Part shown: piece after piece, positions 1-6,123 of the stretch
Layout: each line of letters opens with the position of its first letter
Position numbering within the stretch: position 1 is the stretch's first letter
Assembly (NCBI RefSeq): GCF_001899645.1
Contig: NZ_MKVV01000024.1
Location: forward strand, 121,016 to 185,015
Length of the DNA stretch: 64,000 nt
From: Pseudonocardia sp. 73-21
Lineage (GTDB): Bacteria > Actinomycetota > Actinomycetes > Mycobacteriales > Pseudonocardiaceae
Direction: 5' to 3'
The notes under the pieces: generated by a model
The model's input: the letters and a program-made list of their open reading frames with translations, nothing else
Databases searched by the model: none
What the model was told of the DNA's origin: nothing
Made by a program: the position numbers and the translations under genes

Positions 1-1294
1 CGCGGCGCAGCTCGGTGACGGCGTCGGCGATGGCGGCGAGCTGGTCGCGGTCCGGGTCGGCGTCCGGATCGTCGGGATCGACGACGGGCCGGTACCGCAC
101 CTCGACGGGGTAGCTGCGTCCCGACACCTCGACGATCGGGGCGCCGCCGAAGTGCCGCGAGAAGCGCTCGGGATCGATGGTGGCCGAGGTGATGATCACC
201 TTGAGGTCGGGGCGCCGGGGGAGCAGCTGAGCGAGGTAGCCCAGGATGAAGTCGATGTTGAGGCTGCGCTCGTGGGCCTCGTCGATGATCAGCGTGTCGT
301 ACTGCCACAGCATCCGGTCGCCGGTGAGCTCGGCGAGCAGGATGCCGTCGGTCATGAGCTTGACCAGCGTGGTGTCGCCGACCTGGTCGGTGAAGCGCAC
401 CTTCCAGCCGACCGCCTCACCGATCTCGGTGTGCAGCTCCTCGGCGATGCGGGCGGCCACGGTACGGGCGGCGAGGCGGCGGGGCTGGGTGTGGCCGATG
501 AGCCCGCGGACGCCCCGGCCCAGCTCGAGGCAGATCTTCGGGATCTGCGTGGTCTTCCCGGAGCCGGTCTCGCCGGCGACGATCACGACCTGGTGGTCGC
601 GGATGGCGGCGGCGATGTCCTCGCGACGGGCGCTGACGGGCAGCGTCTCGGGGTAGCTGATGGCCGGCAGGGCGGCACGGCGGGCGGCGATCCGCTGCTC
701 GGCCTCGTCGACGGCGGTGGCGATGCCGGCGAGGTTCCGGTTGCGGGCGGCGCGGTCGCGGGTGCGGTGGGCCGTGTCCAGGCGGCGGGCCAGGCGGTGC
801 TCGTCGCGCAGGCCCAGCGCGGGCAGCCGCTCGGCGAGCGCGTCGAGATGGGCGTCGGAGAACTCGGGCGCCGCATCCTCCGCGAGTCGGGGTGTGCGTG
901 CGTGCGGGTCGGGCTCCGCGTGCGACGGCCGGCGGCGGCGGGACCCGGCCGACGCGGGTCGGTCGCCGTGGCGATGGTCCCGCTCTGCCGGGCCGTTCTC
1001 CGCGCCGCCGTTCTCCGCGCCGCCGTTCTCCGCGCCGCCGTTCTCCACGGGGGCGGGAGTGCCTCCATCGGCCCGGGCGGAACGAGGACGGCGCCGGCGC
1101 GGCCTGCGGGGAGGCCGGGCGTCGACGCCGTCGGGACTCCCGCGGCCCGGCCGGTCGGCGCCGTCGCGGGCGCCTCCACCGGCGGGCACGACACCCTCGC
1201 GGGAGGGGAGGGCGTCGGCGGGTGGGGCGTCCTGCGCGGGGCGCGCGTCGCCGGCTCGGGCCGCGGGAGAGGCTCGATCTACGGGGAAGGACAT
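1..1294 (-). CDS. hrpA: ATP-dependent DEAH-box RNA helicase HrpA, N-terminal part (runs off the left edge)
   Basis: Minus-strand translation gives [47 protein letters not shown] and [17 protein letters not shown]. The frame is open to an ATG at 1294, giving a ~130-aa disordered N-terminal extension; the exact start is uncertain. Absent from the ORF track. Confidence 0.95.
992..1046. repeat. 15-bp tandem repeat x3.7 (GCCGTTCTCCGCGCC), encoding ENGGA repeats in the HrpA N-terminal extension
   Basis: Units start at 992, 1007, 1022 and 1037 (partial). Confidence 0.9.
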
Positions 1295-1321
1295 GGTTCT
1301 TTCAGTGTGACCGATGCGAGA

Positions 1322-1582
1322 TCAGGCCGAGCGTAGGCCGGGTGTGATCTCGTCGTCGACGGGATTGTCGGCCGCCGGGTGCTCGACCAGCGCCAGCACG
1401 CGGTTGGCCAGGAAGCGGGCGGTGCGGATGGTGGAGCCGCCGCGGGTGCTCTCGCTGACCTCGACGAAGCCCCGGCCGTGCGTGATGGAGACCTTGCGGC
1501 CCGCGCGCGTGGCGGTGATGTCGTAGGTGCGGGTGGTGCCGCTGCCGGCGTCGATCACGATCTCTACACGGTCGCCCTTCAT
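1322..1582 (-). CDS. Small hypothetical protein (86 aa, beta-rich; MKGDRVEIVIDAG...)
   Basis: ATG at 1582 with GAAGGA upstream; typical GC3 codon bias; alternating hydrophobic beta-strand pattern. Confidence 0.8.
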   Translation of the reverse strand: MKGDRVEIVIDAGSGTTRTYDITATRAGRKVSITHGRGFVEVSESTRGGSTIRTARFLANRVLALVEHPAADNPVDDEITPGLRSA

Positions 1583-1606
1583 GGCGGTGTCCTTCGATCT
1601 GGAGGA

Positions 1607-1712
1607 GTAGGTGTCCGGACCGGGCGCCGGGCGCCTCACGGCGCGTGGCACACCCGTAGGCGGCGATAGGTAGGACCCGGGGCTCGGATCGCCCGGTTCG
1701 GACACGCACTAC
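1607..1712 (-). ncRNA. Putative structured RNA element, copy B (gene-proximal) of a tandem pair
   Basis: 14/15-bp outer stem TGTCCGAACCGGGCG/CGCCCGGTCCGGACA; bulge ATCCGAGCC; CCGGG/CCCGG stem; C(UACG)G and CGCC(GUGA)GGCG hairpins. Confidence 0.65.
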
Positions 1713-1747
1713 AACCACCCCGACCAGGGAACTGTTCCCCCGACGGG

Positions 1748-1856
1748 GTAGGTGTCCGAGCCGAGCGCCGGGCGCCTCTCGGCGGATGGCACACCCCGTG
1801 GGGTGGCAAAATGGTGAGACCCGGGGCTCGGATCGCTCGACCCGAACAGGCCCTAC
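1748..1856 (-). ncRNA. Putative structured RNA element, copy A (upstream) of a tandem pair
   Basis: 15/15-bp outer stem TGTTCGGGTCGAGCG/CGCTCGGCTCGGACA (3 G-U pairs); same bulge ATCCGAGCC; CCGGG/CCCGG stem; C(CACG)G and CGCC(GAGA)GGCG hairpins. Confidence 0.65.
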
Positions 1857-2689
1857 AACGGGCCGCCCCCCGAAATGATTCCCGCCAGCACGCGATCGGT
1901 GAAGGGCGGCCAGGCCTCGATCGCCCACGGCCCGAAGTCGCGGTCGGTGAGCACCACGCACGCGGCGCCCGCGTCGGGGTCGACCCACAGGAACGTCCCG
2001 GACTGGCCGAAGTGGCCGAAGGTCCGCGGCGAGCTGTTCGCGCCCGTCCAGTGCGGGGACTTGCCGTCGCGGATCTCGAACCCGAGGCCCCAGTCGTTGG
2101 GCTTCTGCCGCCCGTAGCCGGGCAGGATCCCGTCGAGGCCGGGGAAGGCGACGGTCGTGGCCTCCGCGAGGGTGTGGGTGAGCATCGGCGCCTGGAGCTC
2201 CGCGGCGAACCGGGTGAGGTCGGCCGCGGTCGACACCCCGTCGGCGGCGGGGGAGCCCTCCAGCCGCGTGGCCGTCATGCCCAGCGGCTCGCACACGGCC
2301 TGGTCCAGGTACTCGGCGAACGGGATGCCCGCGGCCTCCGCGATCGCGGCGCCGAGCACCTCGAAGCCGGTGTTGGAGTAGATCCGCTTCGTCGCGACGG
2401 CGGCCTGCACGGCGTCACCGGTGAAGGCGAGGCCGGAGACGTGGGCGGCCAGGTGGCGCACCGTGGAGCCCTCGGGACCGGCGGGGGTGTCCCACTCGAC
2501 GGCGCCCTCCTCGACCGCGATCAGCGTCGCGTACGCCGTGAGCAGCTTCGTGACCGACGCCAGGCGGAACGGGCGGTCGATCTCGCCCGCCGAGCCGAGC
2601 ACCGTGCCGTCCGCGGCGACCGTGGTGGCGGCGACGTGGTCGACCGGCCAGTCGAGCACGGTCCCGATGGCGGTGTGCAGGTCGTTCAC
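1853..2689 (-). CDS. Serine hydrolase, beta-lactamase-related family
   Basis: SxxK motif LASVTKL, YSNTGF and FGHFGQSGTFLWVDP; GTG start at 2689. Confidence 0.9.
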   Translation of the reverse strand: MNDLHTAIGTVLDWPVDHVAATTVAADGTVLGSAGEIDRPFRLASVTKLLTAYATLIAVEEGAVEWDTPAGPEGSTVRHLAAHVSGLAFTGDAVQAAVATKRIYSNTGFEVLGAAIAEAAGIPFAEYLDQAVCEPLGMTATRLEGSPAADGVSTAADLTRFAAELQAPMLTHTLAEATTVAFPGLDGILPGYGRQKPNDWGLGFEIRDGKSPHWTGANSSPRTFGHFGQSGTFLWVDPDAGAACVVLTDRDFGPWAIEAWPPFTDRVLAGIISGGGPL

Positions 2690-2704
2690 GCGGCCATCCT
2701 GCCC

Positions 2705-2818
2705 CGGCGGTGCCGATGTCGCCTTCGCGGGACGGTGTGCGTCGGCGGTGCCGATGTCGCCTTCGCGGGACGGTGTGCGTCGGCGGTGCCGATGTCGCCT
2801 CCGCGGGACAGAGCGCGT
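2705..2818. repeat. Intergenic 38-bp tandem repeat x3 (CGGCGGTGCCGATGTCGCCTTCGCGGGACGGTGTGCGT)
   Basis: Units at 2705 and 2743 are identical; the unit at 2781 is diverged. Lies between two divergent start codons. No spacers, so not CRISPR. Confidence 0.9.
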
Positions 2819-2840
2819 CTCCGGTGCCATCCTCGCCGAC

Positions 2841-3659
2841 ATGGCACAGGTACGGGTCGGGACGTCGGGGTGGCGCTACCCACCGTGGCGCCGCACCTTC
2901 TACCCCGAGGGCCTGCCCCAGCGGCGTGAGCTCGAGTACCTCTCGCGGCGGGTCCGGTCCATTGAGATCAACGGGTCGTTCTACTCGCTCCAACGCCCTG
3001 AGAGCTACCGGGCGTGGGCCGCGGAGACCCCCGACGACTTCGTGTTCGCCGTCAAGGGGCCCCGGTTCGTCACCCATCTCAAGCAGCTGCGCGACGTGGC
3101 CGTCCCGATGGCGAACTTCTTCGCGTCGGGGGTGCTGGGGCTCGGCCCGAAGCTCGGTCCGGTGCTCTGGCAACTGCCGCCGCGGATGCGGTTCGACGCC
3201 GCGCGCATCGAGGTGTTCCTGGCGCTGCTGCCGCACACCACCGCCGGGGCCGCGGCGCTCGCCGAGGGCCACGACGAGCGCCTGGACGGGCGGGCGCTCA
3301 CCACCACCGACGCCGACCGGCCCCTGCGCCACGCGCTGGAGGTGCGGCACGAGAGCTTCCGCGACCCCGCCGTCCCGGCGCTGCTGCGCGAGCACGGCGT
3401 CGCGCTCGTGCTCGCGGACTCCGCCGGCACCTGGCCCGTCTTCGACGAGGTGACGGCCGACCACGTCTACGTCCGGCTGCACGGGCAGGACGAGCTCTAC
3501 GCGGGCGGCTACACCCCCGAGGCCCTCGACGCCTGGGCCGGGCGGGTGCGGGGGTGGCTCGCCGCCGGGCTCGACGTGGCCGTCTACTTCGACAACGACG
3601 CCAAGGTGCACGCGCCGTACGACGCGATCGCCCTGGCCGGGCGCCTCATACCGGGGTAG
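2841..3659 (+). CDS. DUF72 (YecE-like) family protein
   Basis: VRVGTSGWRY, SIEINGSFYSLQ, FAVKGPRFVTH, LWQLPP, ALEVRHESF, VYVRLHG and VYFDND. Confidence 0.92.
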   Translation: MAQVRVGTSGWRYPPWRRTFYPEGLPQRRELEYLSRRVRSIEINGSFYSLQRPESYRAWAAETPDDFVFAVKGPRFVTHLKQLRDVAVPMANFFASGVLGLGPKLGPVLWQLPPRMRFDAARIEVFLALLPHTTAGAAALAEGHDERLDGRALTTTDADRPLRHALEVRHESFRDPAVPALLREHGVALVLADSAGTWPVFDEVTADHVYVRLHGQDELYAGGYTPEALDAWAGRVRGWLAAGLDVAVYFDNDAKVHAPYDAIALAGRLIPG

Positions 3660-3835
3660 CCGCACGGCCACCGCGACCGTGACGGCGGCGGTGCCGCCCG
3701 CCGCCGCCCGCCACAACGACACCGGGCGTGATCATCGGTCGGGGACGCGGAGCCGTAGGGGGCGCGGCTGGCGGTCCCGGGGCGACGATCACCCGGCGCG
3801 TGGTCGCCCGTCCGCCGACGTGTGGATCGCGGCGA

Positions 3836-5446
3836 TCAGCCGCGGATGCGGCTGGTCTGGCCGCTCCACTCCTTCTCGCGCAGCTCGAACTTCTGCACCT
3901 TGCCGGTGGAGGTCTTCGGCAGCTCCGCCACGATCTCGACGGTCTTGGGCGCCTTGTAGCGGGCGATCTTCACCTTGACGTGCTCGATGATCTCCTCCGG
4001 CGTGGCGCTCTCGCCCTCGGCCAGCACCACGAAGCCCTTGGGCACCTCGCCCCACTTCTCGTCGGGCACCCCGATCACGGCCGCCTCCAGCACCGCGGGG
4101 TGGGACACGATCGCCTGCTCCACCTCGATCGTCGAGATGTTCTCCCCGCCGGAGATCACGACGTCCTTGGCCCGGTCACGCAGCTCGATGTAGCCGTCGG
4201 GGTACATGACGCCGAGGTCGCCGGAGTGGAACCAGCCGCCCGCGAAGGCCTTCTCGGTGCCGTCGACGTCCTCGTAGTAGCCCTTCATGACGTTGTTGCC
4301 GCGCATGACGATCTCGCCCATCGCGACGCCGTCGGCCGCCACGTCCCGCATGTTCTCGTCCACCACGCGCACGCGGTCGGCGCAGAGCATGCCGACGCCC
4401 TGGCGGGCCTGCCGCGATGCGCGCTCCTCGGGCTCGAGCGAGTCCCAGGCGCGCTGGTACTGGTTCACCGTGTACGGACCGTAGGTCTCGGTGAGCCCGT
4501 AGACGTGGACGATCCGGAAGCCCTTCTTCTCCATCGCCAGGATCGTGGTGGGCGACGGCGGCGCTCCCGCCGTGGTGATCACCAGCTGGTAGTCGAGCTG
4601 CTCGGCCTCGGGGGCGCGCAGGATCGTGGTGACGACGGTGGGGGCGCCGTTGAGGTGCGTGACCCGGTGCTCCTTGATCAACGCCCAGATCGCGTCGCCG
4701 CGCACCTCGCGCAGGCAGACGTGGGTGCCGCCGATCGCCGTGAGTGCCCAGGGGGTGCACCAGCCGTTGCAGTGGAACATCGGCAGCGTCCACAGGTAGA
4801 CGCTGTCGGGCGTGTGCGCGGAGTGGATGATCTCGCCGAACGAGTTCAGGTGGGCGCCGCGGTGGTGGTACATCACGCCCTTGGGCTTGCCCGTGGTGCC
4901 GGACGTGTAGTTGATCGACAGCGTGGCGTCCTCGTCCGCCACGGTCCACGGCAGCGGCTCGTCGTTGCCGCGGGCGAGCAGGTCGTCGTAGCGGACGCCG
5001 CTGCCGATGCCGTCGCCCGGGTTGGCCGGGTCGACCACCGTGATGATCTCCTCGACGGTCTTCAGCTCCCCCGCGACGGGGGCGACCACCGGGTACAGCG
5101 CGGCGTCGACGACGAGCACCGTGGAACCGGAGTGGTCGAGGATGTAGCGCACCTCGTCGGTGGACAGGCGCGTGTTGATCGCGACGAGCACCGCGCCGGC
5201 GAGCGGCACGGCGAAGTGCGCCACCAGCATCTCCGGCACGTTGGGCAGCAGGTACGCGACGCGGTCGCCCGGCTCCACGCCGGACCCGCGCAGCGCGTGG
5301 GCCACGCGGGTGGCCTCGGCCGCGAACTCGGCGTAGGTGTGCCGCCGCTCGCCGTAGACGATGGCCGTCTTGTCCGGGTACACGTCGGCGGAGCGGCGCA
5401 GGAAGGCGAGCGGGGTGAGTTGCGTGTTCCAGACCGACAGGGGCAT
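3836..5446 (-). CDS. Acyl-CoA synthetase (AMP-binding, fatty-acid--CoA ligase family)
   Basis: YTSGTTGKPKGV, YGLTETYG, WFHSGDLG and LPKTSTGKVQK. Confidence 0.93.
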   Translation of the reverse strand: MPLSVWNTQLTPLAFLRRSADVYPDKTAIVYGERRHTYAEFAAEATRVAHALRGSGVEPGDRVAYLLPNVPEMLVAHFAVPLAGAVLVAINTRLSTDEVRYILDHSGSTVLVVDAALYPVVAPVAGELKTVEEIITVVDPANPGDGIGSGVRYDDLLARGNDEPLPWTVADEDATLSINYTSGTTGKPKGVMYHHRGAHLNSFGEIIHSAHTPDSVYLWTLPMFHCNGWCTPWALTAIGGTHVCLREVRGDAIWALIKEHRVTHLNGAPTVVTTILRAPEAEQLDYQLVITTAGAPPSPTTILAMEKKGFRIVHVYGLTETYGPYTVNQYQRAWDSLEPEERASRQARQGVGMLCADRVRVVDENMRDVAADGVAMGEIVMRGNNVMKGYYEDVDGTEKAFAGGWFHSGDLGVMYPDGYIELRDRAKDVVISGGENISTIEVEQAIVSHPAVLEAAVIGVPDEKWGEVPKGFVVLAEGESATPEEIIEHVKVKIARYKAPKTVEIVAELPKTSTGKVQKFELREKEWSGQTSRIRG

Positions 5447-5540
5447 GAGTGGATCCTGAACGCTGCACCCGGGCCGGGCAAGCGCCGAACGGCACTCAGC
5501 GCGTCCCGGTGAGGCTACGGCGCTACCGTTCGGTGCGTGA

Positions 5541-5735
5541 TCAGTCCTCGACGAGCTTGATGGCCGCCCGCGGGCAGGAGGCCACGGCCTCCTCCAGCTT
5601 CGGGCGCAGGGCTTCCGCGGGGTTCTCGTCGAGGATGTAGAGGAAGTCGTCGTCCCTCACCTCGAACACCTCGGGGACGATGCCCATGCAGATGGCGTTG
5701 GACTCGCAGAGGTCGAAGTCGACCGTGACCTTCAT
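5541..5735 (-). CDS. Ferredoxin (single-cluster, actinobacterial P450-type)
   Basis: MKVTVDFDLCESNAICMGIVPEVF...AVASCPRAAIKL, 64 aa; ATG at 5735. Confidence 0.92.
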   Translation of the reverse strand: MKVTVDFDLCESNAICMGIVPEVFEVRDDDFLYILDENPAEALRPKLEEAVASCPRAAIKLVED

Positions 5736-5781
5736 GGGTCCATCGTGCACGGTCACGGACGGGCGGGAAAGCCAGGTCGGC

Positions 5782-5979
5782 CTAACCCGCGGGCGCCCCC
5801 GCCGGGGTGGTGGCCACCGCCCGGGTGGGCGCGGCCGGTGTGGACGTCGCACTGGCCGCGGCGGGCCCCGGGGGACGGTGCGCGTCGACGGCCAGCGCGG
5901 TGCCGGCCATGGCGACGACGCAGGCGGCACTGATCGTGGCGGCGGCGGCCGCCAGCAGGGTGGGACGGGTGAGGGACAT
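5782..5979 (-). CDS. Small putative secreted Ala/Thr/Pro-rich protein
   Basis: Signal-peptide-like N-terminus ending in ALA; GAGG-like RBS; no recognisable domain. Confidence 0.45.
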   Translation of the reverse strand: MSLTRPTLLAAAAATISAACVVAMAGTALAVDAHRPPGPAAASATSTPAAPTRAVATTPAGAPAG

Positions 5980-6123
5980 GAGAGCGGGGGTCCTCTCGTG
6001 GAGCGGCCGTCGAGGGGGAGCGCCGGCCTGACCTGCTCATCTACGGCCCGTCGGCCGTCGTTACCGCTCCGTCACAAGTTGGGCCGTTCGGCTCAGAGCC
6101 GCACCGGCAGGCGGGTCAGGCGC

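Follow-up and report, generated by a model that had tools for sequence, protein, structure and literature searches.

Tandem three-way-junction RNAs with SigH/SigR-type promoters ahead of a small ORF-hrpA operon in Pseudonocardia

Organization of the locus

The window analysed here is a 64,000-nucleotide stretch of the Pseudonocardia sp. 73-21 genome (contig NZ_MKVV01000024.1, positions 121,016 to 185,015). Close to its start, on the minus strand, two similar structured elements (copies A and B) lie in tandem between a serine hydrolase gene and an operon that comprises a small conserved ORF and hrpA. The features of the locus are summarized in Table 1. The two copies are separated by a spacer of 35 nt and are 80% identical; their P1-closed cores span approximately 1754-1847 (copy A) and 1613-1703 (copy B). 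BLAST and covariance-model searches identified them as the sole copies in the 7.09-Mb genome, with E ~1e-13 for the window copies in the whole-genome covariance search. A third genomic match of the covariance model (C76:553-680, 26 bits) proved to be an unrelated hairpin. Measured against shuffled sequences, the folding stability of the copies corresponds to z = -2.2 for copy A and z = -3.5 for copy B. The sequences, coordinates and strand of both repeats agree with those of the initial annotation, which had also placed the ATG of the small ORF (1582) just after copy B; the distance is 24 nt. At the upstream end, the TAG stop codon of the serine hydrolase gene (1853-1855) lies directly 3' of the -10 element of promoter A.

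Table 1. Features of the tandem RNA locus in the window
Feature	Position	Strand	Remarks
Serine hydrolase gene, beta-lactamase family, PF00144	1853-2842	-	upstream of copy A; promoter A lies within its last codons
Promoter A, SigH/SigR-type ECF consensus GGGAATC-N16-CGTTG	1856..1883	-	sequence and regex match
RNA copy A, short-P3 subtype	1748..1856	-	fold; covariance model R1, 81.2 bits; covariation
Promoter B, GGGAACA-N16-GGTTG	1712..1739	-	starts 10 nt past the end of copy A
RNA copy B, short-P3 subtype	1607..1712	-	fold z = -3.46; covariance model R1, 77.2 bits
Short leader, copy B to start codon	1583..1606	-	folds; no terminator
ORF of 86-aa all-beta protein, conserved	1322..1582	-	first gene of the small ORF-hrpA operon
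hrpA, 5' part, DEAH-box RNA helicase	2..1294	-	27 nt downstream of the small ORF

The 86-aa protein encoded by the small ORF has 3,240 homologues across the Actinomycetota and no sequence match in Pfam, NCBIfam or PDB. AlphaFold2 predicts six beta strands (pLDDT 82), and a fold search with this model returned nothing significant (best E = 0.3, TM <= 0.36). The UniRef label 'DUF1876' carried by a homologue is not backed by a Pfam scan. In genera that do not have the RNA, the 86-aa ORF usually precedes hrpA. Two tandem repeats of another kind occur in the flanking genes. A perfect 15-bp x 3.7 repeat in the 5' region of hrpA (992-1046) codes for GGAEN repeats within a long, low-complexity N-terminal extension of the helicase. 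A 38-bp x 3.3 repeat (93% matches; 2705-2828) is found at the 5' end of the annotated beta-lactamase-family gene or upstream of it; it may be a regulatory repeat, or the true start codon may lie further downstream.

Secondary structure and covariation of the RNA

The RNA folds into a three-way junction of helices P1, P3 and P4. P1 (~14 bp) joins the 5' and 3' ends and is followed by a 2-nt bulge and a 3-bp extension, the middle pair of which covaries as CG/UA/AU. After the extension comes a long, C-rich and near-invariant junction, GUGUCCCC(C)GGGYCUCA (also given as GUGUCCCCGGGYCUCA). The P3 arm occurs in two forms. It is either a short hairpin capped by a YNCG loop, the short type present in the window, or a long arm with a conserved 2x2 internal loop, an AAUA/AG internal loop and a small P3b hairpin, which combine into the near-invariant string GGAAUACCGUUCGGCUGGAGCC. 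P4 is an invariant CGCC-GNGA-GGCG hairpin. In copy A these parts are a 14-bp P1 with its 3-bp extension, the junction GAGCCCCGGGUCUCACC, P3 CACCC-CACG-GGGUG and P4 CGCC-GAGA-GGCG; the arms of copy B are P3 CGCC-UACG-GGUG and P4 CGCC-GUGA-GGCG. The YNCG-type loop (CACG/UACG) and the GNRA loop (GAGA/GUGA) that had been described initially are thus present in both copies. Nearly all nucleotides of P3 and P4 are conserved across orders, a pattern seen more often in RNAs that bind a ligand or a protein than in simple base-pairing sRNAs. An apparent association between the type of the GNRA loop and the type of P3 (GCGA with long P3) is true in Pseudonocardia and fails in other genera, and was dropped.

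More than 150 homologues support the fold through covariation. Covariance model R1 was built from 15 long-type copies and R2 from 71 copies; their calibration was shortened, which makes the E-values rough and leaves the bit scores unaffected. Among 60 copies of the Pseudonocardia group, 97.7% of the cells at modelled pairs are paired and 17 of the 34 pairs are doubly changed, as compared to 26-40% pairing in slid controls, far more than chance would produce. Covariation extends to every one of the 14 P1 pairs in an alignment of 97 copies drawn from many genera, where P1 pairing reaches 98.7%. The internal helices P3 and P3b covary as well. In the window, the sense strand scores 77-82 bits against the covariance model and the best antisense match, at copy B, 24.5 bits; the overall ranges are 77-148 bits for the sense and 16-25 bits for the antisense strand. 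Because the sense score is far above the best antisense score, the assignment of the RNA to the minus strand in the initial annotation was right, and its proposal that selection acts on RNA structure on that strand is strongly supported by the covariation in the 60- and 97-copy alignments. The element is a strand-specific, covarying three-way-junction RNA.

Several details of the structure first drawn from the two window copies alone have to be revised. The compensatory changes in the outer stem, two of them full (G-C to A-U and A-U to G-C) and two from G.U to G-C, can be read from the sequence and fold as originally described; the outer stem of copy B also contains one A.C mismatch that had gone unmentioned. 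The proposed inner helix CCGGG/CCCGG is 66.8% paired in the homologues and shows no covariation. The stretch AUCCGAGCC, described as unpaired and invariant, is in part helical: its CCG forms a helix with the CGG that precedes the 3' strand of P1, and it is here that the CG/UA/AU covariation occurs. The outermost helix GUAGG/CCUAC is only about 50% paired in homologues, and its 5' half overlaps the promoter -10 element GTTG. A mutual-information scan of 68 sequences recovered the modelled helices only, with no further pairing partner for the junction, a CCCGGG pseudoknot included.

A SigH/SigR-type promoter ahead of each copy

Each of the two copies is preceded by a promoter that the initial annotation had overlooked: GGGAATC-ATTTCGGGGGGCGGCC-CGTTG for copy A (1883-1856) and GGGAACA-GTTCCCTGGTCGGGGT-GGTTG for copy B (1739-1712). 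These match GGGAAY-N16-19-SGTT(G), the consensus of promoters recognized by M. tuberculosis SigH, S. coelicolor SigR and C. glutamicum SigH (PMC3489674). The motif and its fixed spacing to the RNA are general features of the family. GGAAY-N17-19-GTT ends 1 nt before the first model position in nearly every Pseudonocardia copy, and an ECF-type motif is present ahead of 126 of the 153 distinct copies family-wide. Both window copies have what is expected of members of a SigH/SigR regulon, a consensus match at the proper distance from the RNA. No sigma-70 promoter or terminator was predicted in 1200-2100; the repeated unit therefore consists of the promoter and the RNA.

The strict form of the motif is rare, with just 23 sites in the source genome, including sites upstream of dnaK (C80), clpC (C44) and an FtsH-like gene. 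A relaxed form, GGAAT-N18-GTT, is found at a sigH-rshA-like locus (C95, approximately 87300-88340), where an RshA/RsrA orthologue has the classic HxxxCxxC motif; the zinc-finger region of this RshA begins about 920 nt downstream of the promoter motif. This position is consistent with a promoter of the sigH-rshA pair, the sigma-factor gene being expected there. From the promoter match we infer that SigH drives transcription of the RNA and that the RNA is induced by stress. The transcript would begin at the base of P1, because this is the usual spacing after a -10 element.

Distribution and novelty of the family

The R1 and R2 models detected the RNA in 163 of 201 Pseudonocardiaceae genomes, representing 47 of 60 genera with 1-4 copies each, and in 160 of 301 genomes sampled across the order. 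It was also found in 9 of 41 genomes of Streptomycetaceae and, at E <= 0.01, in 12 of 41 genomes from the family to which Gordonia belongs, where eight of the matches are strong. Copy number across the RNA family ranges from 1 to 5 per genome. An exact-pattern scan detected it in Micromonospora, Actinoplanes, Dactylosporangium, Actinomadura, Nonomuraea, Catenulispora, Yinghuangia, Gordonia, Amycolatopsis, Saccharothrix, Lentzea and others.

The RNA is also carried by 72 plasmid records from Streptomyces, Rhodococcus and others, some of them conjugative, and this suggests that the RNA gene spreads horizontally. On a plasmid of Streptomyces sp. NBC_00111 (L334, 3950-4150) the unit has an intact promoter and terminator and lies where the annotation shows no gene; on pDF01 of Rhodococcus sp. 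p52 (L335, 3986-4113) the unit lies in unannotated intergenic DNA. A search of a phage collection gave no match to the RNA.

The RNA is absent from Rfam. Its novelty in this respect, which the initial annotation had left to a cmscan run, held up: with permissive settings (E <= 1 to 10) applied to positions 1-6000 of the window and to 11 loci from other genera, no Rfam 15 family overlapped any copy. A literature search found no description of the motif, nor of a SigH/SigR-dependent sRNA. The RNA represents a large, as yet uncatalogued candidate family of actinomycete non-coding RNAs.

Gene context and terminators

Outside Pseudonocardia, in Micromonospora and others, a GC hairpin (-27 to -39 kcal/mol) with a T-rich tail typically begins 0-5 nt past the end of the RNA. 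At 102 diverse copies, for which the context genes were called crudely as GC3-based ORFs, the next gene is co-oriented in 59 cases and convergent in 40. Several loci contain two or three tandem promoter-RNA-terminator units with a convergent next gene. Among these, two Pseudonocardiaceae loci (L174, 301-1336, and L177; genomes G195 and G144) have 2-3 tandem copies convergent with ligA, with a stable hairpin after each copy and a recognisable ECF-type promoter on most; they are the clearest stand-alone sRNA layout in the family.

Co-oriented next genes differ from group to group. In Pseudonocardia the neighbour is hrpA, with or without the small ORF ahead of it. Other Pseudonocardiaceae have an MFS transporter gene at this place, and Micromonospora has a gene for either a formate-dehydrogenase-like oxidoreductase or a small acidic protein. 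GCS2 together with an Erm-like methyltransferase occurs in one case. Some copies end just 10-30 nt from the start codon of a co-oriented gene, and a cis role is possible at loci where such a gene follows closely. At five Micromonospora loci (L208, L218, L247, L256 and L259) the RNA and a strong terminator lie 75-160 nt upstream of the co-oriented formate-dehydrogenase-like molybdopterin oxidoreductase gene.

A test for riboswitch-style switching covered 89 copies with strong downstream hairpins. Duplexes of the 3' strand of P1 with the 5' strand of the terminator were on average no more stable for cognate pairs (-8.86 kcal/mol) than for non-cognate ones (-9.10 kcal/mol; p = 0.62). Convergent neighbours, terminators that appear constitutive and the lack of a cognate antiterminator favour an independent small-RNA gene over a riboswitch. 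Outside the window locus the architecture is usually that of a stand-alone gene, and across the family the RNA as a rule has its own promoter and terminator irrespective of the orientation of its neighbours; in the window the promoter is present and the terminator is not. Of the three possibilities raised by the initial annotation (tandem aptamer, protein-binding RNA, repeated sRNA), the repeated sRNA fits best.

The short-P3 copies as leader of the small ORF-hrpA operon

Copies A and B belong to the truncated short-P3 subtype, have no terminators and stand ahead of the small ORF-hrpA operon. Relatives within Pseudonocardia have 1-3 tandem copies, and where a long-type copy is also present, the short-type copy is the one proximal to the ORF. 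The source genome has no long-type copy at all, and the window copies lack the most conserved module of the family; they may have a derived role.

As there are no terminators, transcripts from promoter A should read through copy B into the small ORF and hrpA, and those from promoter B should carry copy B as their 5' leader. A pyrimidine tract in this leader, UCCUCC (1601-1606), can pair weakly with the Shine-Dalgarno sequence GAAGGA (1590-1595). Similar weak pairing is found in 17 of 23 such leaders, a raw count taken without a shuffle baseline, and provides a hint of anti-SD/SD pairing.

In several genera without the RNA (Geodermatophilus, Blastococcus, Actinomycetospora, a Microbacteriaceae MAG and others) the same ECF promoter is found 45-60 nt upstream of the small ORF. 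It therefore seems that the small ORF-hrpA operon has long belonged to the regulon and that the Pseudonocardia lineage inserted promoter-RNA modules into the operon. An obligate module of RNA, protein and helicase is unlikely, since the RNA mostly occurs away from the 86-aa protein and hrpA.

Proposed function and alternative explanations

The interpretation that we favour, and that we consider probable, is that the repeats are stress-induced, independent non-coding RNA genes which at this locus double as promoters and leader of the small ORF-hrpA operon. Each repeat would be a separate transcription unit, in which a SigH/SigR-type ECF promoter is followed by a compact three-way-junction RNA. 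Thiol-oxidative, heat or translation stress would free SigH from its anti-sigma factor RshA, and both promoters would fire. The resulting transcripts would carry one or two folded RNA modules as 5' leader and continue into the small ORF and hrpA. The RNA itself would act in trans, either through pairing of its C-rich junction with G-rich ribosome-binding sites or through binding of a protein. Our best guess is that it is a trans-acting member of the SigH regulon; within such an sRNA model, base-pairing by the junction and protein binding are about equally open. A genome search for long complements of the junction gave no convincing trans targets.

The tandem aptamer or riboswitch controlling the downstream gene, which headed the initial annotation, has features in its favour. 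In this explanation each copy would bind a small molecule and regulate the small ORF-hrpA operon at the level of transcription or translation. Many aptamers are, like this RNA, compact three-way junctions whose joining strands are very conserved and whose closing stem, here P1, varies. The start codon follows 24-30 nt after the ORF-proximal copies, a weak anti-SD/SD hairpin is found repeatedly after P1, and at some MFS loci (L175 and L171) the order is RNA, terminator and gene, the P1 3' strand resembling the 3' strand of the terminator. The conserved, covarying, aptamer-like fold of a riboswitch is thus present, but a consistent place in the 5'-UTR of co-oriented, functionally coherent genes is not: the next gene is convergent at 40 of the 102 copies, some tandem copies are followed by convergent genes only, the co-oriented genes (hrpA, MFS, Fdh-like, GCS2/Erm-like, or none) are mutually unrelated, and the RNA also exists as an isolated unit on plasmids. 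Nor was a switching expression platform found. The terminators follow immediately and show no cognate antiterminator pairing, which leaves the weak SD pairing in Pseudonocardia leaders as the sole positive sign. Moreover, tandem riboswitches are not built with a promoter for each copy, so that stress-induced RNA genes are the likelier explanation; we regard a riboswitch as quite improbable.

Somewhat less improbable, though still unlikely, is that in Pseudonocardia the RNA is purely a cis-acting 5'-UTR element without trans function, the short-P3 copies guarding the operon mRNA from 5'-end-dependent decay or tuning translation via the anti-SD tract. The short-P3 subtype occurs in Pseudonocardia and close relatives, lies next to the ORF when accompanied by a long-type copy, and does without the module conserved in the rest of the family; A and B lead into the ORF with no intervening terminator, most leaders show weak pairing of the SD, and P1 would be at the very 5' end of the transcript if transcription starts 5-9 nt after the GTT. 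A mere stabiliser would, however, have no need of the junction sequence and P4 that the short type keeps invariant. Some short-type copies are 120-190 nt from the ORF with hairpins or another ECF promoter in between (L059 and L032), and the SD pairing is weak (-2.6 to -8 kcal/mol, likewise without a shuffle baseline).

An explanation at the level of DNA, a REP/MITE-like repeat or mobile promoter cassette whose hairpin potential is incidental, would account for the long terminal inverted repeat formed by P1, the patchy distribution with one to five copies and the presence on plasmids. Yet the source genome has two copies only, synteny is kept within genera, and neither target-site duplications nor an association with transposases were seen. 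Scattering through the genome away from genes, which the initial annotation had named as the mark of a REP/MITE, is not what is found: genomes have 1-5 copies, each of them a unit equipped with a promoter. G.U pairs and a strand asymmetry of 50-120 bits indicate selection on one RNA strand, and the internal helices P3 and P3b covary. As the covariation is strand-specific, a DNA-level repeat is essentially refuted.

A broader version of the favoured stress-induced RNA genes can also be envisaged, in which the RNA is the non-coding arm of the SigH/SigR regulon and, in place of an ordinary base-pairing sRNA, a stand-alone sensor or adaptor. The invariant junction, the P3 internal loop and the GNRA hairpin would bind a specific partner. 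Candidates are a thiol-stress metabolite, a protein, the ribosome and the HrpA helicase; the unit would have spread horizontally on plasmids and been captured repeatedly by stress genes (hrpA, MFS pumps) as promoter plus leader. This is speculative, and we think it rather unlikely in this full form.

Comparison with known RNAs

The closest functional analogy is with the enterobacterial sRNAs RybB, MicA and MicL, to which the RNA has no similarity in sequence or structure. Their genes have an ECF sigma-E promoter and an intrinsic terminator of their own, and they form the non-coding arm of a stress regulon. RybB, MicA and MicL use a single-stranded 5' seed together with Hfq, a protein that actinomycetes, to our knowledge, lack. 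In the RNA described here the 5' end is instead locked in P1 and the three-way junction is highly conserved, and the window copies have no terminator and are fused to an operon.

The invariant junction CCCC(C)GGG recalls the conserved Gram-positive sRNAs 6C (Actinobacteria) and RsaE/RoxS (Firmicutes), in which unpaired C-rich stretches pair with G-rich ribosome-binding sites. The differences from 6C are the lack of an Rfam match, a three-way junction rather than two hairpins, and the location of the C-rich stretch in the junction, where it is part of a CCCGGG palindrome. Orphan non-coding RNAs such as the raiA motif RNA are likewise stand-alone, strongly conserved, multi-helix RNAs with GNRA loops and a wide distribution. 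The RNA here differs in its smaller size (~105-135 nt), its link to an ECF promoter, its frequent tandem arrangement, its additional use as an mRNA leader and its absence from Rfam 15.

Glycine riboswitches and tandem complete riboswitches share the arrangement of two similar structured domains in series upstream of a gene; here, in contrast, each copy has a promoter of its own, there is no fixed gene class or orientation, and no switching platform was found. In the YrlA Y RNAs bound by Ro60/Rsr, the two ends likewise pair in a long closing stem, and there is a superficial resemblance between the Ro-binding stem and the P1 strand (UGGUCGG / UGUCCGG); the tRNA-like module of YrlA is missing here. 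A Y RNA was rejected: no TROVE/Ro60 domain (PF05731) was detected in the source genome although controls were detected, and there was no match to YrlA in Rfam.

Implications for the SigH/SigR regulon

In actinomycetes, among which are antibiotic producers and relatives of pathogens, SigH/SigR governs the response to thiol-oxidative, heat and antibiotic stress. No conserved non-coding RNA assigned to this regulon was found in the literature. The RNA described here is a well-defined new family of about 120 nt, with a three-way junction, more than 150 aligned members and a recognisable stress promoter. Over half of the genomes sampled from the order carry it, and it is also present on plasmids.

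The promoters upstream of the small ORF, with or without the RNA, suggest that the small ORF-hrpA operon, which encodes a helicase linked in Streptomyces to tolerance of ribosome-targeting drugs, belongs to a SigH-type regulon in many genera. The stress induction of hrpA in S. coelicolor depends on WblC, an activator of sigR as well; the Streptomyces HrpA helicase is ribosome-associated, and deletion of hrpA makes S. coelicolor 4-8 fold more sensitive to erythromycin and tetracycline (PMC7157823).
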